A stretch of DNA of 64,000 nucleotides from NCBI GenBank assembly GCA_023665365.1, contig JAMPEA010000001.1, forward strand, positions 83,914 through 147,913, written 5' to 3'. Both the position numbers and the translations under genes were made by a program. The notes under the pieces are model-generated. The model did no database searches and had not been told where the DNA came from. It saw nothing but the letters and a program-made list of their open reading frames with translations. Shown here piece by piece: positions 1 through 37,070 of the stretch (position 1 is the first letter of the stretch; each line of letters starts with the position of its first letter). This DNA comes from Bacillota bacterium (GTDB taxonomy: Bacteria > Bacillota > Clostridia > Christensenellales > CAG-917).

Positions 1-421
1 AATTGAATAAGTCGCTTTCGATTTCGGGACCCTCGTCTACGCTGAACCCCATGCCGAGAAATATATCTATAAGCTCTCGCCTTATGAGAGTGAGCGGATG
101 AAGCGTGCCGAGTCGCTTTCCATAAGCTGGCAAAGTCACGTCGATTGCTTCCGCTTTGAGCTTTGCCTCTTCCTCCTGCTTTGCCAAAACAGCAGTTTTA
201 TCGTTGAGAAATCCCTCGACCGCCGAGCGAAGTTCGTTTACGAGTTTGCCCATAGCGGGTCTTTCCTCTTTTGGCACGTTTGCCATATCGCGCATGACAA
301 GGGAAATTTCCCCGTTTTTTCCGAGATACTTCACTCTGACGTCGTTAAGTTCCGAAGTTGTCGCAGCCTTATCGATCATGGCTATCGCGCTCAGTTTGAT
401 GCCGTCCAATTTTTCCTTCAT
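1..421 (-). CDS. pheS: Phenylalanine--tRNA ligase alpha subunit, N-terminal part (gene continues beyond the window edge)
   Basis: My own minus-strand translation from ATG 421..419 gives MKEKLDGIKLSAIAMIDKAATTSELNDVRVKYLGKNGEISLVMRDM...GTLHPLTLIRRELIDIFLGMGFSVDEGPEIESDLFN. The KYLGK, HPLT and GPEIE..D..N motifs are typical of PheS. GGAG lies 9 nt upstream. It is absent from the ORF track because the frame is open at the window edge. Confidence 0.85.
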   Translation of the reverse strand, partial: MKEKLDGIKLSAIAMIDKAATTSELNDVRVKYLGKNGEISLVMRDMANVPKEERPAMGKLVNELRSAVEGFLNDKTAVLAKQEEEAKLKAEAIDVTLPAYGKRLGTLHPLTLIRRELIDIFLGMGFSVDEGPEIESDLFN

Positions 422-545: not shown

Positions 546-1931
546 TCAGTCGTTCGGGATTTTAACGGTAATATCAAGCGGACTGTCTCCGAGTTTAATT
601 TGTTCCACTCCGCTAATCAAGGTGTTTCCGAGATACATTTGCTTTTCGTCGCCGCGCTCGATATGCAAGGTGTTTTTTACGCCGTTTACGTCGAAAATCA
701 CGTCGGCTTTATCTATCTGCTTTGGCAAAGCGGGCATTAAACGCAGTTTTCCTCCGACAGTAGATATGCCGAAATTTACAGTATGATACTTATATATTGG
801 CTCAAAAGTATTCTCAAATTCAAGCATTTTTGAAATACTTTTACCCAATTTTCGTTTTGATTTGATGTTTGGCGCAAAATATAAATCCATAAAGTGCTTT
901 GAGCCGAGCGCAGTTGCAAGCATAGTTATATCTCTTTTGTGATTGATAATGCAGACCATGCGCGAAAGTAAATTTGCTTTTTTGACGCGAATATGCCCTG
1001 CCGACGCGCTCTGCATATATTTTTCGAGTCTTACGGTATATAAAAACTCGTCGAGATTTTCCTTGTCGCTCGCCTCTTTAATGAGCGAAAGAAAATTGCT
1101 TTTGACTATCGGCGCGGCATTTGAAAACACCTCGAATCTATCGAGAATTTCAAGCGGAGTATAGTAACGCGAAAAATCGTATGCTTCCACTATCTTTATA
1201 GTCGCTACTATATTCTTTATCGCCTCGCATATTCTGTCGGTCACTTCGCCGTGAACGTTTGAAAAATATTCCATTTTATAGCCTGCGCACAGCGCGCATA
1301 TACTCAAAAACAGCTTCGATTTGGTTAATTTTTTATATTTTTCATCTAAAAGTATAGGATTATATACGTACTTTGCCGACAGTTTATAGATTTTTGCCAA
1401 CGTGTCGAGTTGCAGATATATATAGCACAGCTTTTCTATTAAAACGTAAATAAACGCCGATTTCATAACGACGATTTCCGAAAACGACAGAGTTTTACGC
1501 TTGTTATGCTCCTCTATTATGGTTTTTACCCTGCTTTCGTCAAACTCATATCCGGTGTGAGCAAGGCAAAATCTCGCTATCTTGACCGCTCGCGGCTCGC
1601 CGTTTATTGACGGCAATTCGTCAAGACAGGTTAAATCGGTTTTTAATAACGTCTTGATTTCCTCTTCGAGTTCGACAAATTTGTCAAAAAAGCCGCAATA
1701 TTTTTTCATCTTTATTTCAAACGCTATCAATTTGATTTTGCTCGCATACTTTTTGGCGTCGGTTTTTCCGCCCTCCTTTGGCAAAGGCAACGAATTTACA
1801 AACTCGGCGGATTTACTTTTGTATTCCTCATCGGTGTATTCGTCAAAATAAAGCGCCCTTATTTTAGGACGCGTAATGAGATATACGCATAAAAAAACTG
1901 CGACAACGGCTATGGATATTGCATATTCCAT
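546..1931 (-). CDS. Hypothetical membrane-anchored protein (one N-terminal TM helix, large soluble domain)
   Basis: 461 aa ORF with an N-terminal hydrophobic helix (ISIAVVAVFLCVYLI). The segment INGEPRAVKIARFCLAH...LSFSEIVVMKSAFIYVLIEKL resembles, from memory, the N-terminal region of cyclic beta-1,2-glucan synthase/GH94-type proteins. No catalytic motif was recognised. Confidence 0.5.
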   Translation of the reverse strand: MEYAISIAVVAVFLCVYLITRPKIRALYFDEYTDEEYKSKSAEFVNSLPLPKEGGKTDAKKYASKIKLIAFEIKMKKYCGFFDKFVELEEEIKTLLKTDLTCLDELPSINGEPRAVKIARFCLAHTGYEFDESRVKTIIEEHNKRKTLSFSEIVVMKSAFIYVLIEKLCYIYLQLDTLAKIYKLSAKYVYNPILLDEKYKKLTKSKLFLSICALCAGYKMEYFSNVHGEVTDRICEAIKNIVATIKIVEAYDFSRYYTPLEILDRFEVFSNAAPIVKSNFLSLIKEASDKENLDEFLYTVRLEKYMQSASAGHIRVKKANLLSRMVCIINHKRDITMLATALGSKHFMDLYFAPNIKSKRKLGKSISKMLEFENTFEPIYKYHTVNFGISTVGGKLRLMPALPKQIDKADVIFDVNGVKNTLHIERGDEKQMYLGNTLISGVEQIKLGDSPLDITVKIPND

Positions 1932-1987: not shown

Positions 1988-2019
1988 AAAAAGAAAAGAG
2001 GCGGCTCTTGCGCCGACCC
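1988..2019 (-). terminator. Intrinsic terminator downstream of rnpB
   Basis: Minus strand reads GGGUCGGC-GCAAGA-GCCGCCUC (imperfect stem) followed by UUUUCUUUUU. Confidence 0.5.
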
Positions 2020-2024
2020 TTTTC

Positions 2025-2348
2025 ATATGCGAGATTAGTCTGTAAGCCGAGTTCTGTCTTAGACGGTCATCTATCTAGATACCGCATCTCTGCGATATTC
2101 AAGCGATGTGCGGAGCGTGCGGGCAACACTTATGCTCCAATCTTGCATCGGGGTGGGGTTTACATCGCGCATTGTCGCCAAATTGCGGGTGAGCTTTTAC
2201 CTCGCCTTTCCATCCTTACCGCATACGCGGCGGTTTTTTTCTGTTGCACTGTCCTTAAAGTCGCCTTTACAGGGAGTTACCCTGCACCCTTGCCCTGTGA
2301 TGCTCGGACTTTCCTCGAATATTTCACGCGACCGTCCGGCTAACTCGC
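2025..2348 (-). ncRNA. rnpB: RNase P RNA, bacterial type A
   Basis: Minus strand contains GAGGAAAGUCCGAGC, CAGUGCAACAGAAA..ACCGCC, GGUAAGG..GAAAGG..GGUAAAAGC.CACC, GUAAACCCCACCC and ACAGAACUCGGCUUACAG in the order seen in E. coli M1 RNA. The P1 helix is GCGAGUUAG (2348..2340) paired with CUAAUCUCGC (2038..2029). Confidence 0.93.
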
Positions 2349-2354
2349 AAAATT

Positions 2355-2383
2355 GTTATAGCATATTTTTTATATGTATGCAA
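2355..2383 (-). promoter_or_regulatory. Sigma-A type promoter of rnpB (TTGCAT-17-TATAAC)
   Basis: -35 at 2383..2378 and -10 at 2360..2355. The predicted start is G2348, the first nucleotide of the P1 strand. Confidence 0.6.
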
Positions 2384-2423
2384 GCACATTGCTTGCAGAA
2401 TTTAGCTGCGGACAGTAATTAGA

Positions 2424-2457: not shown

Positions 2458-2534
2458 CAAAATTGTTATATCATATTTTTTATATGTGTGCAAGCACATT
2501 GCTTGCAGATTTTTAACTGCGGATAGTAATTAGA

Positions 2535-2623: not shown

Positions 2624-4315
2624 TTATTGCAAGCTATCCTTATATCTCTGCGCCCATGCTTTCATTTCTTCGGCGTGCGGTATGGCAAACCTACTGTAAT
2701 CGTTGCCGCCAATCAGACGCGCCACCTCGTCGGTATCGTCGTCGAGTAACGTCACGTGCGTAAGCGTCTTTCCGTTTTCGGTGGATTTACTTATCAAATA
2801 ATGGCTGTCCGCCATTGCCGCAAGGCTCGGCATATGCGTGACTGCGATGACTTGACGACCGCGGGATATATTGCAAAGTTTTTCAGATACCACAGCAGAG
2901 ATATTGCCCGAAATCCCCGTATCTATTTCGTCGAAAACCATAGTGCCGATGCCGTCAATACCCGCAACTATATTTTTGAGCGCAAGCATAAAACGCGACA
3001 TTTCACCGCCGGATATAATCTTTGCGAGCGGTTTAAGCGGCTCTCCGACGTTCGGCGAAATCAAAAATTCCACCGTATCCGCACCGTTTGAGGTTATATC
3101 GTCAATTTCTGTTGCGGTTTTAACGTCAACCTTAAAAGTCGAGCCGCCCATGCCGAGGTCTTTCAACTCTTTAATTATGGATTTCTCAAACTCGACTGCG
3201 ACCTTAATGCGCAAAGCGGTCAGTTTTTGCGCACATTCCAAAAGACGCTCGCCGCTCTTTTTGATTTCTCTTTCGAGTATTATAACGCGGTCGCCCGCAT
3301 TCGACAAAACGTCGGCTTCTTCCTTGGCTTTGACGTAAAAATTTTGCAAGGACTCGTAATTGCCGCCGTACTTTCTTAAAACTGCGCGGACTTCTTCAAG
3401 CCTGCTTTCGATTTTGTCTGCCGAGCGACTGTCGAAATCGAGCTTGTCAAGCATATCTGAAAGCGTTGCGCTGATATCCTCGATTTCGAGTTTTGCGCTG
3501 TCAAGCCTGTCGGTGAGCGCGGGAATATCCTCGTCGTACGACGCAATCGTATTGAGCACCGATGCCGCGCTTTTAAGCTCAGCGCCTACACCGCCATTAT
3601 CATAGCCGTCAAGCGCTGACTTTGCCGACTGCAATGCCGACAAAATCTTTTCCGTATTGCGTATACGTTTGCGTTGGGCAAGCAAAGTTTCCTCCTCGCC
3701 CTCTTCAACGTTTACGCGCTCGATTTCTTCGAGTTGATAATTCAGTATATCGAGCCGTCTTTCTCTCTCGGCGCTGTCGCCGTATCTCGATAGCTCGCGC
3801 TTGAAATCGCTATATATATTGTAGGCTTTTAGAGTATCTAATTGGGCGTTTTTGATTTTACTTTCGCCGATAGTGTCCAAAAGCGCGATGTGCGTAGAAC
3901 TTCTGAGCAATGATTGATGCTCGTGCTGTCCGTGTATATCGACAAGCAATTCCGTAAGCCCTTTGAGGATTGAAAGCGTCGTAACTCTGCCGTTTATTCT
4001 GCATTCGTTTTTGCCCTCGGCTGTCATCTTGCGGCGTAATATCAAAATATCTTCCGCTTCTATGCCGACGTCGTCGAGATAGGTTGAAATCTGCGGATTT
4101 AAATACTCCTCGAAAACAGCCTGCACAACCGCATAATCCGTTCCGTAGCGTATAAGAGTTTTGTCCGCCCTTTCGCCGAGAACGAAATTAAGCGAGTCTA
4201 TGATGATAGACTTGCCCGCGCCCGTTTCGCCGCTAAGAATATTCAGCCCGTTTTCAAGCGTAAGTTCAAGCTTGTCTATCAAAGCGACGTTTTCAATGCA
4301 CAACTGTCTCAGCAT
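2624..4315 (-). CDS. recN: DNA repair protein RecN
   Basis: 563 aa. N-terminus is MLRQLCIENVALIDKLELTLENGLNILSGETGAGKSIIIDSL (Walker A). It has an SMC-like coiled coil, a C-terminal GGEMSRFMLALK signature and a DEIDTG Walker B. Confidence 0.95.
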   Translation of the reverse strand: MLRQLCIENVALIDKLELTLENGLNILSGETGAGKSIIIDSLNFVLGERADKTLIRYGTDYAVVQAVFEEYLNPQISTYLDDVGIEAEDILILRRKMTAEGKNECRINGRVTTLSILKGLTELLVDIHGQHEHQSLLRSSTHIALLDTIGESKIKNAQLDTLKAYNIYSDFKRELSRYGDSAERERRLDILNYQLEEIERVNVEEGEEETLLAQRKRIRNTEKILSALQSAKSALDGYDNGGVGAELKSAASVLNTIASYDEDIPALTDRLDSAKLEIEDISATLSDMLDKLDFDSRSADKIESRLEEVRAVLRKYGGNYESLQNFYVKAKEEADVLSNAGDRVIILEREIKKSGERLLECAQKLTALRIKVAVEFEKSIIKELKDLGMGGSTFKVDVKTATEIDDITSNGADTVEFLISPNVGEPLKPLAKIISGGEMSRFMLALKNIVAGIDGIGTMVFDEIDTGISGNISAVVSEKLCNISRGRQVIAVTHMPSLAAMADSHYLISKSTENGKTLTHVTLLDDDTDEVARLIGGNDYSRFAIPHAEEMKAWAQRYKDSLQ

Positions 4316-4362
4316 AATTTCCTCTGTATCGAAACGAAAATAAAATAACCGTAAGACGACGG

Positions 4363-4821
4363 TTATTTATTGAGCAAAGTTTCAAGCCTTTCGCGCACGA
4401 TTTCTGTGTTGTCGAGGCTGTCGATAGCAACGAATATCGTATTGTCCCCTGCGATAACTCCAAGCACTTCCTCATAGCTCAGCTTATCGATAAATTCGGC
4501 GGCAGGACCTGCGCTTCCGACCTCGGTTTTGAGGACGACGAGATTTTGCGAACTGCGTATGGATATAACCGTATTTTTAAACATATTCAAAAATTTATCC
4601 GAAGCGTTCGTCTCTTTTGTGCGCTGAACGGCGTACTTATAATGACGACCGTCCGAAGAAAGAGTTTTGATTATGCCCATATCCTTAATATCGCGCGAGA
4701 TTGTAGCTTGCGTGATATTGAAGCCTTCGCATTTGAGTTTTTCGACAAGTTCTTCCTGAGTATCGATGTCGTACTTTGAAATAATTTCCAAAATTTTGAG
4801 TTGACGGTTTGCTCTTATCAT
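4363..4821 (-). CDS. argR: Arginine repressor ArgR/AhrC
   Basis: 152 aa with a winged-helix N-terminal domain (QEELVEKLKCEGFNITQATISRDIKDMG) and a C-terminal GVIAGDNTIFV motif. The argR-recN adjacency is conserved. Confidence 0.9.
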   Translation of the reverse strand: MIRANRQLKILEIISKYDIDTQEELVEKLKCEGFNITQATISRDIKDMGIIKTLSSDGRHYKYAVQRTKETNASDKFLNMFKNTVISIRSSQNLVVLKTEVGSAGPAAEFIDKLSYEEVLGVIAGDNTIFVAIDSLDNTEIVRERLETLLNK

Positions 4822-4880
4822 TTTATTCCCCTTGTTATATGTATTTTGAGAGGTCTAATCGCTTAAAATCAATCTGCCGA

Positions 4881-5684
4881 TTATTTAAACGTTGTGCCCC
4901 ATCTATTCATTTTAGTAAGCAGTTTCGAGTAAAAATTATCCTCTTTGCAGGATAAAAATGCAGCCTTTTTTTGCGAGCGCGACACGTTTACGACCCCGCC
5001 CTTTTTAAGCCCTCCGTTGTTTGCGCCGTCAATAGAAACTGTGGCGCAAAGCTCGCCTGATAACCTTACCTCTATCTCGGATTTCGAGCTTACGACAAGC
5101 GGACGCGAATGCAGCGAATGCGCGCATATCGGAATAATCAAGATAGCCTCCACGTTCGGAGCAAGCACGGGACCGCCCGCCGAAAGCGAGTATGCCGTTG
5201 ACCCCGTAGGAGACGCGACTATAAGCCCGTCGCTGTGGAACGTGTCGGCAAATTTTCCGTCCACGCTTACGTCAAGAGTTATCGGACGGTTGCCTGCGGT
5301 TTTGATGACCACTTCGTTTAACGCGTTAAATTGCGCCTCGCCGTTGATACCTACATCAAGCAGCATACGTGAAATCGGCTTACCTGCTTTTAAGCAATTC
5401 ACCACCTCGCCGCAATCGGCGTTCTGCTCATACTCTGTCAAAAAGCCCAAATTGCCGAGATTTACACCCAAAATAGGAATATTTTTTCCGTTCAAGGAGC
5501 GCACTGCGTCCAGCACCGTTCCGTCTCCGCCGAAAACCAGCACCCTGTCCGTATCCGAGGCAATTTCGCTTGAATTGGAATATTCACGCACAGTGCAATC
5601 GCTGTCGGCTCTCAACAAATCGAGCACTCCGACGCGCGTAAAATCTTCCGTCATATTGGGTTTTGTGATGACCGCTATATTCAT
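4881..5684 (-). CDS. nadK: NAD kinase
   Basis: 267 aa with GGDGT, NLGNLGFLTE and TGSTAYSLSAGGP motifs. Confidence 0.93.
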   Translation of the reverse strand: MNIAVITKPNMTEDFTRVGVLDLLRADSDCTVREYSNSSEIASDTDRVLVFGGDGTVLDAVRSLNGKNIPILGVNLGNLGFLTEYEQNADCGEVVNCLKAGKPISRMLLDVGINGEAQFNALNEVVIKTAGNRPITLDVSVDGKFADTFHSDGLIVASPTGSTAYSLSAGGPVLAPNVEAILIIPICAHSLHSRPLVVSSKSEIEVRLSGELCATVSIDGANNGGLKKGGVVNVSRSQKKAAFLSCKEDNFYSKLLTKMNRWGTTFK

Positions 5685-5809
5685 TTTAATACCTTTTGCG
5701 CTCCGTATTATACACTAATCGAAAATATAATTCAAGCTAAAATGCATAATTGGGCAAAAAATGTATAATTTTTATTCAAAACCAGATTATGCGAAAATCG
5801 TCCGAAAGG

Positions 5810-6523
5810 TTAAAGCGTTTTTTTAACGTACAAGAGATATTCGATATTTTTATTTTGATAGCGTATCGGCGACGTGGCTATACCTACGATTTGAAATCCG
5901 AGCGAGATTGCGCATGCCTTGATTCCGTCAAGCGCGCGGACGCGCAATTTTTCATTTGTGACAATCCCGCTTTTGCCGAGCGCGGATTTATCAAGTTCAA
6001 ACTGCGGTTTGACTAGTACGACCGCCTCGCCGCCACCGTTCAGTATGCGAAATATTTCCGGCAACACCAGCTTTAACGAGATAAAGCTAACGTCCGAACA
6101 TACGAAATCGACCTTGTGAAAATCGCTTAGAAGTTCCCTCGCGTTTGACCTTATAAATTTCACCTTGCCGCTTTCCAAAAGCGAAGGATTTAAAGCGCAC
6201 TCGGCTACGTCAACAGCGTATACGTATTTTGCGCCGCGCCTTAAAAGGCAATCTGTAAATCCGCCGTTAGAGCAACCGATATCGGCGCATACTTTGCCCG
6301 TCACGCTAAGCCCGAACTTCAAAAACGCCTCTTCGAGTTTATATGCCCCCTGCGAAGCGTATCCGTCGTCAAAAATTTCTACTACGTCGCCATCGTTTAC
6401 GCTATAAGAAGGTTTGACCACAACGTTGCCGTTGACAAAAACTCCGCCCGTTTTTATCAGGTTTTCTGCATAAGTGCGCGAACGCATATCATAGGTGATT
6501 TGTAAGTAACGGTCAAGTCGCAT
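5810..6523 (-). CDS. tlyA: TlyA-family rRNA 2'-O-methyltransferase (S4 domain plus FtsJ-like domain)
   Basis: 237 aa. MRLDRYL...N-terminal S4 domain and a DIGCSNGGFTD SAM-binding motif. Confidence 0.9.
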   Translation of the reverse strand: MRLDRYLQITYDMRSRTYAENLIKTGGVFVNGNVVVKPSYSVNDGDVVEIFDDGYASQGAYKLEEAFLKFGLSVTGKVCADIGCSNGGFTDCLLRRGAKYVYAVDVAECALNPSLLESGKVKFIRSNARELLSDFHKVDFVCSDVSFISLKLVLPEIFRILNGGGEAVVLVKPQFELDKSALGKSGIVTNEKLRVRALDGIKACAISLGFQIVGIATSPIRYQNKNIEYLLYVKKTL

Positions 6524-6603: not shown

Positions 6604-7377
6604 TCAGTCGTTTTGTTCGTCGATATTCTTTTCGTCGGACGCGCGCTTCACTTCCTTATTGGATTTCTTTTGCAAACTATCCTTTTTGCGGATTTTGCGC
6701 TCGTCCCTATTGAATATCGACACTATGCGAGCTACGAACATAACGAAATCTTTGGAGTTGTTTATGGCGATATTTTTCATAAACGCCTTGCCGCCTATCG
6801 TGACTGCGGATACCACTGCCGAGATGATGATTGTAAGCCACCTTTGCCACTCATCGCCGAGCGAAATTGCGATTTTGACAACGACCGCGGCAGAGCACGC
6901 ACCCGATATGATGCCGAAAATATCGCCGATTACGTCGTTACAGATACTCGACACAGTGCCGCTGTTTCGCACAAGCCAAAGCGCGGTCTTTGCGCCGTGT
7001 ACCTTTCTCGACGCCATAGAAGCAATGGGCGCAATATCGCATGAAGTCACCGCCACGCCGATGGAGTCGAAAAGTATACTGGCGAGTATCAAAAACGCGA
7101 GCAGCAATATGATAATCACTATCTGCTCGGCAGAAGCCGTAAGCTCGCTTAAAAAACTGAAAAAGCCCGCCAATACGAACGAAATGACGGATGCTTTGAG
7201 CCACCAAATATTGCGTTTTTTCTTTACCTTTTTGCGCTTGCCGTCAGCCGACTCGGAAGTTTTGGCTATTTCCTTGTCAAGTGGTTGCGCAGACTGAGCC
7301 GACACGCGTTCCGGCACAGCGGGCGTGTTGTCTGAATCGTCTTGAACGCTTAAATCTTTATCGTTTAAAGTATCCAA
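6604..7377 (-). CDS. Four-TM membrane protein with basic N- and C-terminal tails; candidate OapA-like partner of the upstream large ncRNA
   Basis: 257 aa with a TTG start (AAGGAG 4 nt upstream). Four hydrophobic helices, a KRKKVKKKR patch before TM1, an NDVIGDIFG (DxxxD) motif in TM3 and a lysine/arginine-rich C-terminal tail. It lies directly upstream of tlyA-nadK-argR-recN. Confidence 0.6.
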   Translation of the reverse strand: MDTLNDKDLSVQDDSDNTPAVPERVSAQSAQPLDKEIAKTSESADGKRKKVKKKRNIWWLKASVISFVLAGFFSFLSELTASAEQIVIIILLLAFLILASILFDSIGVAVTSCDIAPIASMASRKVHGAKTALWLVRNSGTVSSICNDVIGDIFGIISGACSAAVVVKIAISLGDEWQRWLTIIISAVVSAVTIGGKAFMKNIAINNSKDFVMFVARIVSIFNRDERKIRKKDSLQKKSNKEVKRASDEKNIDEQND

Positions 7378-7442
7378 AATGCTCCTTGTAATCTATATTA
7401 TGTAGCCTAATGCTAACGTATGCTCCAATAAATATATCCGCC

Positions 7443-7787
7443 CAAGCAAAAGATTTTGCGAATGTTGCGGGAGTTGCTATGTCGGCAAAAGTGAACAGCA
7501 AAAATCTTTTGCGCAGTAGGACAAGGAAGCCTCACCCTACACTTGTTTTGATTTTCAAGCGCCGCAGGCGCGTCACCAAGCAAAAGATTTTGCGAACGCA
7601 GCGGGAGTTGCTACGTCAGTAAAAGTGAACAGCAAAAATCTTTTGCGCGGTAGGACAAGGAAGTCTCGCCCTACACTTGTTTTGATTTTCAAGCGCCGTA
7701 GGCGCGTCACCAAGCAAAAAATTTTGCGAACGTTGCGGGAGTTGCTATGTCAGCAAAAGTGAACAGCAAAAATCTTTTGCGCGGTAG
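7443..7787. repeat. Tandem 134 bp repeat, about 2.6 copies, rich in GCAAAA-N2/3-TTTTGC palindromes
   Basis: Units start at 7443, 7577 and 7711 (caagcaaaagattttgcgaa...). Copies differ at a few positions. No credible ORF is present. Confidence 0.95.
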
Positions 7788-7789
7788 AT

Positions 7790-8440
7790 GCAACAAAATC
7801 AAGTCACGGCTTTGGCAAAGCAAAATTTTTTTGCTTTGTCGTGCCGTTTACGCTGATTTTGTTGCGAGGTGGCAACAACTTGGGTAAACCTTGCGTCTTA
7901 GGTTCGGTAGGATTTCCCTGTGCGAAAACTTGCCGTCGCCGTGCAAGACGTTTCCGATTACTTCGCACATTCTTGCGAAAACCGAATCGCCACTTAGTAC
8001 ACACTATAATCCCCAAGTTGTTACGCGAACGAACAGTCTAGAAGATTTCCTTGGCAGATTCCCTCCGACCTTATCTTTTTTTGCAAAGCGGATTTCGATG
8101 AGCAATCGCCGATGCGTATTGGCCATACGGCAAGAGCGTGAATCTCAAATCCCTCCGCCTCACTCAAAGCAGGCTACACTGTACACAGCACGTAAGCACC
8201 GCATAAACAGGTTTCACCCCAGTCAGTAGAGGATTTGCGCCTCTACCGAGTTGGGTCTCCACGGCAGTTGGGTCGTGATTTGTATGCCATTACAAGTCGC
8301 CCAAAAACCTTAACTCCCAGCAACAGCCCCGATTTGGGCAAAAGAAGCCATCACCAGAAACTTCATCGATATGCCCTTCGACGATATTTTACCCCCGTCT
8401 CCGGCACGGCGGAATCTGACTAGAATACTGCGCCACCATT
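7790..8440 (-). ncRNA. Large (about 650 nt) structured non-coding RNA, OLE-like by size and gene context
   Basis: No long ORF in any frame. A consensus promoter sits just upstream. Long-range complementary segments: GGUGGC (8437..8432) with GCCACC (7873..7868), and an 11 bp pair at 8022..8012 with 7884..7874. Local hairpins include 8226..8246. A roughly 75 nt 3' rod spans 7790..7865 (12 bp outer stem plus 10 bp inner stem). The context (RNA, 4-TM protein, tlyA-nadK-argR-recN) matches what I recall for OLE RNA loci. Confidence 0.6.
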
Positions 8441-8446
8441 TATATT

Positions 8447-8474
8447 ATTATATCAATACTTTAAAATATGTCAA
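8447..8474 (-). promoter_or_regulatory. Consensus sigma-A promoter (TTGACA-16-TGaTATAAT) driving the large ncRNA
   Basis: -35 TTGACA at 8474..8469 and extended -10 TGATATAAT ending at 8447. It lies directly after the recG stop. The predicted start is near 8440. Confidence 0.7.
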
Positions 8475-8489
8475 CCGATAAGATTTTAA

Positions 8490-10520
8490 TCAACTGTTTA
8501 AAGTGACCTTTTTAAGCTCGCCTAAAAACGCATCCACGCGCGATTTTGAGCGTCGCGTCAATGCCGCAAGTTCTTCAAGAGTGAGATTTGAAAGCCTTTC
8601 GTCGGCATATTTTTTTGCGTCGGATAAAATTTCCGCCGACATTTTAAGCCCGAAAATCGGCGTAACGGAGCCGCCGCTTTGGCGCGTCCCCATAAAATCG
8701 CCCGCTCCTCGCATAGCAAAATCCGCCTCGGCAAGATACTGACCGTCGTTGTGCGCACAAAAGGTAGAAAGTCTGTCCTGCGCCTTATCGCTCGTCCCGT
8801 TTGAATGTACGTAGCAATGCGCCTCCGAGCCGTCCCTCCCTACGCGCCCGCGCAACTGATGCAGAGATGCCAACCCGAATCTGTCCGCTCCGAGTATAAA
8901 AATTTCGCTTGCAGAAGTATCTATGCCCACCTCTACGACCGTCGTTGCAACGAGCACTTGCGCTTTTCCGCTTGCAAACTCTCGCATAGCAAGCTCTTTT
9001 TCCGCATCGCTCATCTTTCCGTGCAGAATTCGTAAATCTAACCCATCGAATTTATTCTTATAATCTCGCATAAAGCTCTCAATGGACATTATGTCAAAAC
9101 CCTCTGCATCTACGATAGACGGACAAACTATAAAGGCTTGTTTGCCGCGTTTGCAAGCGGAGAGTATATGTTCTACGCCCTCGTCTATGCTATGCACTAT
9201 GCTTGTCTGCACGTTGGTCTTTGCATCCTCGCGCTTTTGTATGTATGAAATGCTTATGTCGTCGTAGAAAGTAAGCGCCATAGACCGAGGGATAGGCGTT
9301 GCGGTAAGCGAAAGCACGTCAACCGCGCCTTTACTTTCCAATAGACGACGTTCGTTCACTCCGAATTTATGCTGTTCATCGATGACGGCGAGCGAAAGAT
9401 TTTTGTAAGCCACGTCCTGCGAAATCAACGACTGCGTGCCGATTATACAGGATATTTTGCCCTCTTTGAGGTTTTGCAAAACGTCGCGGCGTTCGATTTC
9501 ACTGATAGACGAAGTAACCAATGCACAGTTTATGCCGAATTTATCCGCAATGCTCTTGAACTTTGAAAAGTGTTGCCTCGCAAGTATTTCCGTCGGCGCC
9601 ATAAGCGCGCACTGCTTTTTGCCAAGCGCGCTTGCAACCATAGCAAAGAAGGCAACCGCAGTCTTTCCGCTTCCGACGTCGCCGCTAACTATGCGCGACA
9701 TATAATTTTTTGAGCGCATATCGCTAAGGATTTCGTCAAATGCCTTAATTTGCGAGGGCGTAGGCACAAAATCAAGCGCATTTATAAACTCATCTATTCT
9801 AAAATTTGTCAAATTATATAATACTTTACGCGATTTTTCATCGGATTTACGAAGTTTTCGATACATTGAAAGCACGATAGCGAGGTCAAGCGACGCAAGC
9901 TCCGCCATAGCAAAAGACGCTTCATCTACACTTTTGGGATTATGTAAGCGCAAAAAGATATTCGTCATATCCTCGTTGACCGCCGCAAGTCTGCCCTCGT
10001 ATTTAGTCAACTTGATTTCATCAAGCGCATTCTGCATTATGTTTTTGAATGTGTTTTGCCCTATTATTCCCCTAAGCGGATAAACGGTATATATGTCTTT
10101 CAACTTTGAAATTTTGTTTAATCTTTCAAGTTGCGGGTTTACTACGTTAAACGCGCTGTCGTCTTTTGAAAGTCTGCCGAACAGTCTGTATTCGTCGCCG
10201 AGCTTAAACGTATCGTGAAGAAAAGGCATGTTATAAAACGTTGCCTTAAAATAAATGCGTTTATCCCCCGCAAGATTATCCGAAAAGCTCACGCTGAAAG
10301 AGCGTTTTCCTCTTGGCGACACGGCGGACACCTTTTGCACTTTGCCTTCAAACAGATTTAGCGTTCCGCGTTCGGCATCGATTACGCTTATCGGAGATTG
10401 CAAATCAATATATTTTGTCGGCAAAAAAGAAAAAAGCTCAAAAACCGATTTAATATCAAGTTCTTGCAACTTTTTTATTGTGGCATCGCCAACGCCTTTG
10501 ATTTGCGATAAAGTCAACAT
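8490..10520 (-). CDS. recG: ATP-dependent DNA helicase RecG
   Basis: 676 aa with GDVGSGKT, DEQHKFGV and QLRGRVGR motifs. Confidence 0.95.
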   Translation of the reverse strand: MLTLSQIKGVGDATIKKLQELDIKSVFELFSFLPTKYIDLQSPISVIDAERGTLNLFEGKVQKVSAVSPRGKRSFSVSFSDNLAGDKRIYFKATFYNMPFLHDTFKLGDEYRLFGRLSKDDSAFNVVNPQLERLNKISKLKDIYTVYPLRGIIGQNTFKNIMQNALDEIKLTKYEGRLAAVNEDMTNIFLRLHNPKSVDEASFAMAELASLDLAIVLSMYRKLRKSDEKSRKVLYNLTNFRIDEFINALDFVPTPSQIKAFDEILSDMRSKNYMSRIVSGDVGSGKTAVAFFAMVASALGKKQCALMAPTEILARQHFSKFKSIADKFGINCALVTSSISEIERRDVLQNLKEGKISCIIGTQSLISQDVAYKNLSLAVIDEQHKFGVNERRLLESKGAVDVLSLTATPIPRSMALTFYDDISISYIQKREDAKTNVQTSIVHSIDEGVEHILSACKRGKQAFIVCPSIVDAEGFDIMSIESFMRDYKNKFDGLDLRILHGKMSDAEKELAMREFASGKAQVLVATTVVEVGIDTSASEIFILGADRFGLASLHQLRGRVGRDGSEAHCYVHSNGTSDKAQDRLSTFCAHNDGQYLAEADFAMRGAGDFMGTRQSGGSVTPIFGLKMSAEILSDAKKYADERLSNLTLEELAALTRRSKSRVDAFLGELKKVTLNS

Positions 10521-10529
10521 ATCGGCAAT

Positions 10530-12188
10530 CTATTCGGCTGAAATAATATAGAAATAGTGCGGCTGACCGCCGAAGTAGCAAGCGACTTCTATGTCGGGAA
10601 GCTCGCTCGACACGCTTTGAACGAGCGCTTCGGCGTCCTCCTGCGACACGCCCTCACCATAGTATAGCGTGACCATATCCTTGTTTTGCGCAATCTTTTT
10701 GATAGTGCTGATTGCCGCCTGCGCAACCGATTGATTTTTTGCGACGATTTTTTTGTTGTTTATCCCTATTATGTCGCCCTCTTTCACGGAAAATCCGTTC
10801 ATTCGCGTATTGCGCACGGCATGAGTAATCTCTGCAACACACGTACTGCCGAGAGTCGCGCACATGTTGTCGTAGTTGGTTACACCGTCCGCTTCCAAAT
10901 CATATGCGAGCATTGCCGAAATTCCCTCGGGCATATTTGTCGTAGGTATTACGAATACGTTGGGCTTGGCAAGTTCCTTTGCCTGATTTGCGGCGAGAAT
11001 TATATTGCTATTGTTCGGCAGTATATACACGTTTTTCGCTTGCGCGTTAGTTATTGCGGTGAGAATTGCGTCCACGCTCGGATTCATAGTCTGCCCGCCC
11101 TCGACAACCACATCTACCATAAGGTCTTTGAAGATTGCCGCAAGTCCCTCGCCGCAGCACACTGATATAACTGCGTTTTCTTTGAGTTCCACCTCAGAAC
11201 CCGCCGCATCGCCCGCGTGGATTTTGCGATACTGTTCGAGCATATTTTCTATCTTTACGCCGTCGAGCTCGCCGAGATTGAGCGCCGATTTCAGCGCACG
11301 GTCGGGATTGTTGGTGTGTACGTGGGTTTTTACGAGGTCAGTATCCCCGATTACAAGAACGCAATCGCCGATTGTCATAAGATAGTTGCGGAATTTGTCA
11401 ATCGAAGCGTCGGTGACGTCGTTTTTCAAGTGAGTTATAAAAAATTCCGTACAATACTGGAAAGTGATATTTTCGTAGTCGTTTTCTAACGTATCGAATT
11501 CTTTATTAGATGACGTTTGCGCGTCGTCGAGTTTGTCGAATTTGACGCTCTCGCCGCTTATCAGCACCAAATCAAGCCCCGCAAGCGTGCGATACATGCC
11601 GTCGAACACGGTGAGTATTCCTCGTCCGCCGGCGTCTACCACACCCGCCTTTTTGAGTACGGGCAACATTTCGGGGGTTTTTTGGAGAATTTCCTCGCCT
11701 GCGTCGATGACTTTTTTCAGAAAGTCTACCATTTCGACTTTCTTTCCGCGCGACGCGGAAGCGGCGGTTTCTGCCATTTGGCGTATAACGGTGAGTATCG
11801 TGCCCTCTTTTGGTTTTGTGACTGCGCTATATGCAATCTCAGTGCCGCGCTTTAAGCACTCCGCAAAAGACTTGACGGTGATTTCCGTCTTTCCGTCGAG
11901 CGCGAGCGAAAAGCCCTTGAATATCTGCGACGTGATAACGCCGGAGTTTCCGCGAGCGCCTTTTAGCGCTCCGCGCGAAAAAGCGGTGGCGATTTCGCCT
12001 ACGTGAACGGAGTCGCAAGCGTTTGCTTCGCGCAAAGCCGACGCAACGGTGAGCGACATATTAGTGCCCGTATCTCCGTCCGGCACAGGAAATACGTTGA
12101 GCGCGTCAACCGTATCGCGGTTGAGTTCAAGCGCGCGAGCGCCTCCCGCCAACATTTCTTTGAATTTTGATCCGTCTATTTTTATCAT
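10530..12188 (-). CDS. yloV: DAK2 domain fusion protein YloV
   Basis: 552 aa with an N-terminal Dak2 motif (VFPVPDGDTGTNM). The conserved asp23-yloV-recG order is present. Confidence 0.9.
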   Translation of the reverse strand: MIKIDGSKFKEMLAGGARALELNRDTVDALNVFPVPDGDTGTNMSLTVASALREANACDSVHVGEIATAFSRGALKGARGNSGVITSQIFKGFSLALDGKTEITVKSFAECLKRGTEIAYSAVTKPKEGTILTVIRQMAETAASASRGKKVEMVDFLKKVIDAGEEILQKTPEMLPVLKKAGVVDAGGRGILTVFDGMYRTLAGLDLVLISGESVKFDKLDDAQTSSNKEFDTLENDYENITFQYCTEFFITHLKNDVTDASIDKFRNYLMTIGDCVLVIGDTDLVKTHVHTNNPDRALKSALNLGELDGVKIENMLEQYRKIHAGDAAGSEVELKENAVISVCCGEGLAAIFKDLMVDVVVEGGQTMNPSVDAILTAITNAQAKNVYILPNNSNIILAANQAKELAKPNVFVIPTTNMPEGISAMLAYDLEADGVTNYDNMCATLGSTCVAEITHAVRNTRMNGFSVKEGDIIGINNKKIVAKNQSVAQAAISTIKKIAQNKDMVTLYYGEGVSQEDAEALVQSVSSELPDIEVACYFGGQPHYFYIISAE

Positions 12189-12200
12189 ACGTTGTTCCTA

Positions 12201-12560
12201 TTAAATGCGGAGCCCTACGACGTTTACGTGGACGCGCTTGACGCACATACCCGTAAAAGTTTCAACAGAAAACTTCACTGCGTCGGATAACGATTTTTTC
12301 ACGGCTTCTTCGCTTTCGCTTACGCTGCGCTTCAACACCGCATAGACCTCTATATAGATATAGCTGTCAACCGTCTGAACTATGACTCCTTTTCCTTGCT
12401 GGGGATTTTTGCTGAATAGCTGTCCGAAATTATCGCTAAAACGGCGTGATACCAAATCAACCACGCCATAGCACTCCGAAGCGGCGTGCGAAGCTACCGC
12501 CTGCACCGCCTCATCGCTTATGGAAATCTTTCCGAACTTATTAGATGTTGTAAGCGACAT
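12201..12560 (-). CDS. Asp23/Gls24 family envelope stress protein (YloU-like)
   Basis: 119 aa (GKISISDEAVQAVASHAASECYGVVDL...). Located upstream of yloV as in Bacillus. Confidence 0.88.
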   Translation of the reverse strand: MSLTTSNKFGKISISDEAVQAVASHAASECYGVVDLVSRRFSDNFGQLFSKNPQQGKGVIVQTVDSYIYIEVYAVLKRSVSESEEAVKKSLSDAVKFSVETFTGMCVKRVHVNVVGLRI

Positions 12561-36977: not shown

Positions 36978-37070
36978 TGGCGGAGAAGAAGAGATTCGAA
37001 CTCTTGAACCGCTTGTGACGGTTACGCGATTTCCAGTCGCGCGCCCTCGACCAAACTAGGCGACTTCTCC
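36978..37070 (-). tRNA. tRNA-Ser (anticodon GGA), class II with a long variable arm and encoded CCA
   Basis: Minus strand reads GGAGAAG-TC-GCC-TAGTTTGGTCGA-GGGC-G-CGCGA-CTGGAAA-TCGCG-TAACCGTCACAAGCGGTTC-AAGAG-TTCGAAT-CTCTT-CTTCTCC-G-CCA, which folds as a cloverleaf. Confidence 0.93.

Follow-up and report, generated by a model that had tools for sequence, protein, structure and literature searches.

The stretch of DNA analyzed here, 64,000 nt in length and referred to throughout as “the window”, encodes on its minus strand a full-length OLE (ornate, large, extremophilic) RNA of ~570 nt, an assignment that we hold with ~96% probability. OLE proper, i.e., the sequence from the 5´ strand to the 3´ strand of the closing helix P1, occupies positions 8437..7868 (570 nt). 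The OLE family has been known since 2006, reportedly through the work of Puerta-Fernandez et al. in that year. The locus described here is an ordinary new family member in a known type of context; a 2024 survey counted >2,800 OLE representatives (Fernando and Breaker, PMC11332333).

Studies of Halalkalibacterium halodurans, together with cryo-EM work, have shown that OLE RNA dimerizes and is membrane-associated via OapA, a CNNM-like protein that is a suspected divalent metal ion transporter (PMC12265935, PMC12286853, PMC11332333). Cells need the OLE ribonucleoprotein to withstand short-chain alcohols, cold, excess Mg2+, and poor carbon sources. In current models, part of the RNA spans the bilayer (PMC12265935, PMC12286853). 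By extension from these published systems, the RNA encoded in the window would fold and dimerize, OapA would recruit it to the cell membrane, and the resulting ribonucleoprotein would help the cell to cope with the same conditions.

A clean annotation of this locus is useful, since deposited records of metagenome-assembled genomes (MAGs) call the partner protein merely a “CNNM domain-containing protein”. The annotation also records an arrangement specific to the clade, in which ole has its own promoter after recG, the OapB site is shortened, and oapA is not followed by a dxs-sized gene. For specialists, the point to look at is the ole-oapA junction, where a covarying hairpin is found in a few relatives and a structured unit has been duplicated in this genome.

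Identity and structure of the RNA

The entire window was scanned against all 4227 Rfam families. Three matches reached the gathering score, one of which is the interval under study: RF01071 (OLE) matches positions 8452..7853 of the minus strand with 421.9 bits, eight times the gathering score of 50, and an E-value of 1.6e-120, which excludes a chance match. The alignment is untruncated, covering positions 1–616 of the 616-position model. Where the model consensus is strongly conserved (upper-case positions), the window sequence is identical at 224 of 249 positions (90%); in the family at large, ~25% of OLE positions are >97% conserved (PMC12265935). The initial annotation had described the interval as normal in G+C content, and the values agree, with 48.8% in the RNA as compared to 47.8% in the window.

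The initial annotation had taken the RNA to be either an OLE representative or another large ornate RNA in the same position. The covariance model bears out the first option, and the second falls away. In favor of the second option, an undescribed large structured RNA filling the usual OLE position, there was only the shared gene context before the model was applied; in addition, the score of 422 bits is lower than the 505–558 bits of classical OLEs from Bacilli and thermophiles. It is rejected as scarcely credible, because the OLE match is full-length, the conserved positions are largely retained, every model helix is present, and no other Rfam family, including other large ornate RNAs, exceeds its threshold in the interval. 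The lower bit score, together with a truncated P13 hairpin (see below), instead places the RNA at the divergent end of the full-length OLE type. No result speaks against its assignment to OLE.

The elements listed in the initial annotation are all present, at its coordinates or a few bases away. Two long-range pairings that had been picked out from the sequence by eye are real features of the family. In the closing helix, P1, GGUGGC (8437..8432) pairs with GCCACC (7873..7868), 564 nt away, as compared to the initial estimate of ~565 nt. This helix is unannotated by Rfam; across 24 OLE sequences, 98.6% of its cells are paired and four of the six pairs covary. The second pairing, an 11-bp helix formed by AACAACUUGGG (8022..8012) and CCCAAGUUGUU (7884..7874), is among the long-range helices that the Rfam OLE model contains. 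In the same 24 sequences, 98.1% of its cells are paired, and covariation is seen for 10 of the 11 pairs.

The alignment used for these counts was made with MAFFT, blind to structure, and comprises the window sequence and 23 others: 14 from the same clade, three obtained from close relatives through contig look-ups, and six from distant hosts, among them Salimicrobium halophilum and Thermoclostridium caenicola. Covariation at homologous loci, which had been proposed as a check on the initial reading, is extensive. With pairs taken from the Rfam-derived structure of the window sequence plus the closing helix, a choice that somewhat favors that structure, 87% of cells are paired across the 22 helices, versus 41–45% when partners are slid by one to three columns; both-side changes occur at 104 of the 159 pairs, and none of 500 shuffles reaches any of the observed measures.

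No credible ORF had been recognized in the interval, and closer scrutiny does not alter this. Mechanical ORFs are present, the longest being 112 aa on the plus strand. None of six ORFs searched against Pfam reaches the gathering score of a family; with the limit relaxed to E ≤ 1, one ORF has a single sub-threshold match of 9.7 bits and the other five have none. The RNA model accounts for the whole OLE interval. Protein coding was also considered for the tandem array that follows the RNA (see below); for the OLE interval and the array together, it is rejected in view of the lack of Pfam matches, the 134-nt period of the array, and the compensatory substitutions in helices.

The Rfam alignment deletes 11 model positions at P13, which is truncated to a hairpin of the form UUC-GCAA-GAA (7970..7979, minus strand). 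The GNRA loop is kept, but the stem has just 3 bp and no single-nucleotide bulge. In the 24-sequence alignment, the same truncation is found across the recG-OLE clade (defined below) with the exception of one member, L008, which retains a long P13 stem, as do six distant OLEs. Binding of OapB requires the P13 GNRA loop plus a single-nucleotide bulge in the stem (PMC7936274), and some gut clades are without OapB and OapC and have lost the P13 end (Fernando and Breaker, PMC11332333). Since this feature of P13 is known to be dispensable in some clades, its loss does not exclude membership of the OLE family. With P13 reduced to a 3-bp stem that has no bulge, an OapB-free particle is probable in this lineage, i.e., the OLE complex of the clade probably works without OapB. 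No KOW/SBB or L7Ae matches, as would be expected for oapB or oapC, were found among nine small ORFs within the window; these genes are normally unlinked to ole, so the result is uninformative for the genome as a whole. The joining sequences around P5 that are able to form the OapC k-turn (AUCGAUGAAGUU and GUUAAGG) are intact, and the GCGA loop of P14.1 is conserved.

Taken with a 490-nt insertion between OLE and oapA that is unlike anything in its relatives, the truncation of P13 might suggest a decaying, non-functional OLE relic. However, the truncation is common to nearly the whole clade and is not a private lesion. A consensus promoter is intact and conserved, nine-tenths of the invariant positions are retained, compensatory change maintains the helices within the clade, and oapA is intact, with a highly conserved core. 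A relic is very improbable on this evidence.

Promoter, gene neighborhood, and OapA

The initial annotation had noted a near-perfect promoter right after the recG stop codon. The match to the sigma-70-type consensus is complete (12 of 12 positions; 8447..8474, minus strand): TTGACA (8474..8469) and TATAAT (8452..8447) flank a 16-nt spacer ending in TGa, an extended −10 element, and the −35 box is positioned 16 nt past the recG stop at 8490. All nine of the clade loci compared have TTGACA-N17-TATAAT-like boxes just after recG. Judging from the position of these boxes, transcription of ole would start at ~8441..8439.

The neighboring genes are all on the minus strand. Upstream of ole is recG (8490..10520), which is syntenic in 16 related loci, preceded by fakA (12188..10530) and an Asp23-family gene (12560..12201). 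Downstream of oapA is a cluster spanning 2624..6523, with tlyA (6523..5810), nadK (5684..4881), argR (4821..4363), and recN (4315..2624). The initial annotation had listed a gene for a protein with four transmembrane segments followed by tlyA-nadK-argR-recN, and had likened this to the neighborhood of OLE and OapA. Both the gene order and the likeness hold: the tlyA-nadK-argR-recN order follows oapA in most of 80 related loci, and the neighborhood recurs at OLE loci of other genomes. The full order fakA-recG-OLE-oapA-tlyA-nadK-argR-recN is common to a clade of MAGs from uncultured gut Clostridia, the recG-OLE clade, whose members are loci L001–L010 and, from contig look-ups, L081–L087, L094, and L096. 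Most other hosts have an extra gene of ~1.9 kb between oapA and tlyA, and the window has none. This gene is presumably dxs, going by the Bacillus cluster ispA-(ole-oapA)-dxs-tlyA. Hosts of OLE are typically anaerobic or extremophilic Bacillota. The nearest loci are from uncultured Clostridia or Christensenella-labelled gut MAGs, and the gene content of the window (yloU-fakA-recG and tlyA-nadK-argR-recN clusters) fits Bacillota.

The gene directly downstream in the OLE context, oapA (6604..7377, minus strand), encodes 257 aa and has a TTG start and an AAGGAG ribosome-binding site; the start region TTG GAT ACT TTA AAC is conserved in a relative (L001). Hydropathy analysis gives four hydrophobic segments, consistent with the transmembrane count of the initial annotation. 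A CNNM/DUF21-like core at residues 92–223 matches at 30.2 bits against a cutoff of 28.4, a marginal score that covers the membrane core only, and there are no CBS or CorC domains. The N-terminal extension of ~55 aa is poorly conserved and ends in a Lys-rich patch. Among 1258 homologues, the core is highly conserved.

The identity of the protein as OapA follows from what lies upstream of its homologues, the operational definition of oapA being a gene that follows OLE. Eighty genomic loci with OapA homologues were fetched; for the 15 scanned loci that hold enough upstream DNA, full-length OLE is directly upstream in every case, with scores of 397–558 bits. These 15 include the cultured S. halophilum and T. 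caenicola. Eight further close relatives also carry a full-length OLE directly upstream of oapA. The window protein is 35–43% identical (E ~1e-34) to OLE-adjacent orthologues from Salimicrobium, Fictibacillus, and Metabacillus. The 257-aa protein is thus the OapA orthologue.

The identical sequence is known only from three NCBI protein records, as “CNNM domain-containing protein”, labelled “Bacillota bacterium” and “MAG: Bacteroides sp.”. A search of the contig index for the exact sequence (the TTG-start translation and P0001) gave no match, nor did a sequence search of the PDB. NCBIfam has no OapA model, and the lone sub-threshold match found there, to a T6SS family, is noise.

A consensus scan predicted no terminator-like site on the minus strand from 7853 to 7378, i.e., between OLE and oapA; the scan recognizes loops of 3–8 nt only. 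Likewise, no acceptable sigma-70 match was found after the array, either by consensus scan or by eye, that could serve as a promoter for oapA itself. With no predicted terminator between the genes and a strong promoter upstream of ole, ole and oapA are most likely transcribed together from the ole promoter.

The junction between ole and oapA

The initial annotation had the RNA ending in a rod of ~75 nt. A stable rod does exist, as a 76-nt hairpin directly 3´ of OLE (7865..7790, minus strand) with a predicted folding energy of −35.6 kcal/mol (z = −6.0); none of 200 shuffles folds as well. However, the rod lies outside the OLE family consensus, and the Rfam match goes no further than the closing helix. 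The placement of the 3´ boundary of the RNA at 7790 is therefore an assumption. Neither the restriction of the rod to a sub-lineage nor the array that follows it had been visible to the initial annotation.

Homologous rods were found only in four close relatives (L081, L083, L084, and L096). All of the rods have arms of the form AAAAUC...GACUUGAUUUU, and their outer and inner stems are divergent in sequence yet complementary. Four rods can be aligned, with 95% of cells paired, versus 28–42% in slid controls, and with both-side changes at 17 of 30 pairs. In this small sample of four sequences, the potential to form the predicted hairpin is clearly maintained. The rod is present in only four to five genomes, and its palindromic symmetry could be kept at the DNA level.

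The usual distance between OLE and oapA, from ~60 loci, is 15–45 nt. In six of eleven close relatives, the start codon of oapA is only 24–60 nt away from the closing helix, and two of these six rodless, short-spacer relatives have a small terminator-like hairpin at the junction. The spacing of 490 nt in the window is the longest seen, because a structured unit is tandemly repeated after the rod. The array consists of 2.6 copies of a 134-nt unit (7442..7787, minus strand), with 92% matches at period 134, a length not divisible by three. The predicted fold of a single unit has one hairpin of ~80 nt (ACCGCGCAAAAGAUUUUUGC.../...GCAAAAUYUUUUGCUUGGU) and two short hairpins, and the array region folds more stably than shuffles (z = −4.8). 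The unit is single-copy after the rod in L081 and L083, where it begins CUACCGCGCAAAAG; its long stem has one compensatory change between the window and these two relatives.

Several searches were made for relatives of these elements. By blastn, the rod and array have no further copies among the 80 OLE loci or elsewhere in the window, and there are no Pfam matches for array ORFs. Between 7350 and 7900, a search of Rfam at E ≤ 10 gave only sub-threshold matches to microRNA precursors and SAM/SAH families, typical of any long hairpin. One scan of metagenomes for the unit-stem pattern GCGCAAAAGNTTTTN{40,65}TTTTGCTTGG returned six loci, which have no further similarity and are attributed to chance. 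The OLE literature that was searched has no description of a rod-plus-array extension. The array seems to have arisen recently, by tandem duplication of a structured spacer unit, and may be neutral.

What the rod might do is a separate question. Our tentative reading, for which the odds are somewhat short of even, is that it defines or shields the OLE 3´ end while letting some transcription continue into oapA. Three things prompt this reading: (i) the arms of the rod are A-rich and U-rich; (ii) simpler hairpins are found at the same junction elsewhere; and (iii) the RNA is needed in large excess over the membrane protein. One way would be leaky termination, with pairing between the A-rich and U-rich flanks of the rod; another would be that the rod blocks processing or exonucleases. 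In both cases, OLE could accumulate well above the oapA message. With no recognizable promoter for oapA alone, termination at the rod cannot be efficient. Two points weigh against a role in termination: the stem is not followed by an unbroken run of U residues, and the rod was not called by the consensus scan, although the scan, given its limit on loop size, could not have called it. If the rod does set the OLE 3´ end or tune read-through, it bears on how a very abundant RNA and a membrane protein that share one promoter are kept in balance.

The patchy presence of the rod among close relatives, and the lack of a match to any Rfam family, would also fit a different origin: the rod and the 134-nt units could be remnants of palindromic mobile or repeat (MITE-like) elements that inserted between ole and oapA, with no RNA-level role, and with DNA-level processes keeping the arms complementary. 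Indeed, the rod is a near-perfect palindrome that matches its own reverse complement, and the adjacent unit has been tandemly amplified in this genome only. Against this, neither the 64-kb window nor the 80 related loci have a second copy, and the metagenome pattern scan gave no real match. Target-site duplication is not evident, and in five genomes the rod has the same location, immediately after P1. Furthermore, the arm sequences differ between genomes yet are complementary, which fits vertical descent under selection for pairing. We regard a MITE-like origin as unlikely.

The elements also sit in what would be the 5´ UTR of oapA, such that the rod and repeated units might form a cis-regulatory leader, for example, a platform for a protein or for OLE itself. 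The compensatory change in the unit stem and the stability of the array fold are compatible with this. However, only three independent sequences carry the unit, and its copy number varies; in addition, no such leader is required, because most relatives have just 24–60 nt from OLE to the start codon. A regulatory leader is accordingly rather improbable.

A more far-reaching possibility may be considered. In this sub-lineage of gut Clostridia, OLE may have gained a structured 3´ domain, either as part of the mature RNA or as an element controlling the OLE:OapA ratio. The proposed domain would comprise the covarying 76-nt rod plus one or more hairpin modules of ~130 nt, 2.6 copies in this genome. 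We offer this as speculation that is doubtful as it stands; if true, the OLE particle would have acquired its 3´ domain as a natural and evolvable addition, and the domain would not be junk spacer.

Comparison with known systems

Intrinsic terminators and attenuators offer the closest parallel to the rod. Like them, the rod is a stable hairpin right after an RNA; its 5´ flank is A-rich and its 3´ flank is U-rich (CUUGAUUUUGUUG), and simpler terminator-like hairpins are located at the same junction in four other OLE loci (L025, L049, L086, and L095). The rod differs in that its U tract is interrupted, its stem is much longer, and it has internal loops.

The OapA of the window clade resembles H. 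halodurans OapA (BH2780 / WP_010898928.1) and the MpfA/CNNM family. It likewise has four hydrophobic segments and no CBS or CorC domains, its weak CNNM/DUF21 match is limited to the transmembrane core, and its gene is directly after ole. In published work, the transmembrane region of OapA resembles the CNNM domain of MpfA, with the CBS and CorC domains absent (PMC12265935). The proteins of the window clade differ in having a poorly conserved, acidic or polar N-terminal extension of 50–90 aa with a Lys-rich patch at its end; this extension is absent from orthologues in Bacillaceae and Oscillospiraceae.

The RNA itself is most like the full-length OLE type (PMC11332333). It has the same length of ~570–600 nt and all of the model helices, including P1 and the 11-bp helix; oapA is immediately downstream, in a tlyA-nadK-argR-recN neighborhood, and the host is probably from an anaerobic Bacillota lineage. 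In H. halodurans, ole lies inside the ispA...dxs polycistron, whereas ole in the window has its own consensus promoter directly after recG. Further differences from the best-studied OLE are the presence of recG upstream, the absence of a dxs-sized gene after oapA, the truncated and bulgeless P13, and the N-terminal extension of OapA. These features, together with the separate promoter, are clade-level variations of kinds already noted in the 2024 survey. Beyond them, the RNA in the window differs from the full-length type in being followed by the lineage-specific 76-nt hairpin and the array of 2.6 134-nt units.

OLE variant 1 (TANB77-type, PMC11332333) also comes from uncultured gut Clostridia, and also lacks the P13-end nucleotides of the OapB site. 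The window OLE scores above the 390-bit boundary used in that study, although a different covariance model was employed there and the numbers are not strictly comparable. In contrast to variant 1, the window OLE keeps the three large central hairpin domains (model positions ~197–385) essentially at full length, and is therefore closer to the full-length type.

Structured elements between ole and oapA

The interval between the 3′ rod of OLE and oapA is occupied by a tandem array of a 134-nt unit (7442..7787, minus strand), present in 2.6 copies with 92% identity. For each unit, the predicted fold comprises a long A/U-rich stem and two short G+C-rich hairpins. The same unit is found as one copy each in L081 and L083, the loci of the two closest relatives, and is absent elsewhere. 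Two relatives that lack the rod, L086 (~2460..2500) and L095 (~330..370), have a small hairpin of a different kind in the gap that separates OLE from oapA, with arms AAUAAUAUCCGA-loop-UCGGAUAUUAUUUG, and terminator-like hairpins are located at the same junction in two further loci, L025 and L049. Structured elements at the ole-oapA junction therefore seem to have had several separate origins.

The N-terminal extension of OapA

Residues 1–55 of OapA (6604..7377, minus strand) form an N-terminal extension that is acidic or polar and poorly conserved. Across the clade, i.e., uncultured gut Clostridia MAGs sharing the gene order fakA-recG-OLE-oapA-tlyA-nadK-argR-recN, the extension is 50–90 aa long, whereas OapA orthologues of Bacillaceae and Oscillospiraceae lack it. 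The extension is closed by a conserved Lys-rich patch, KRKKVKKKRN, just ahead of the first membrane segment. In L010 (3768..4090), from the complete-chromosome MAG CP091723.1, the oapA frame is apparently broken where the Lys-rich region is encoded, close to a run of A residues (gacaaaaaaaaaagcctg). A homopolymer error of long-read sequencing is the probable cause, and not decay to a pseudogene.

Taxonomic labels of OLE-oapA records

The NCBI records of this OapA (MCM1305769.1, MCM1394404.1, and MCM1455669.1), identical in sequence, are attributed variously to “Bacillota bacterium” and to “MAG: Bacteroides sp.”, and further OLE-oapA loci (L003, L040, and L066) come from MAGs that carry a Bacteroides or Muribaculaceae label. 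These labels look like binning or labelling errors, in agreement with a published comment on non-Bacillota OLE, according to which the few OLE matches beyond Bacillota are probably artefacts (PMC11332333).

Other RNAs and the flanking genes

Directly 3′ of recN is a full-length class A bacterial RNase P RNA (2026..2347, minus strand; 237.4 bits). Two mechanically called plus-strand ORFs, 2008..2343 and 2108..2422, overlap this RNA and should not be annotated as genes. Downstream of the RNase P RNA is a 461-aa ORF (546..1931, minus strand) with zero matches in Pfam and NCBIfam. The sole tRNA of the 64-kb window is a tRNA-Ser with anticodon GGA and a long variable arm (36978..37070, minus strand).

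On the other side of ole, an Asp23-family gene and fakA, which encodes DAK2/FakA domains (together 10530..12560, minus strand), run on into recG. Together, these three genes make up the conserved Firmicutes yloU-yloV-recG arrangement (Bacillus subtilis names). In the clade, the ole-oapA cassette is attached to this Asp23-fakA-recG group instead of to the nusB...ispA cluster.
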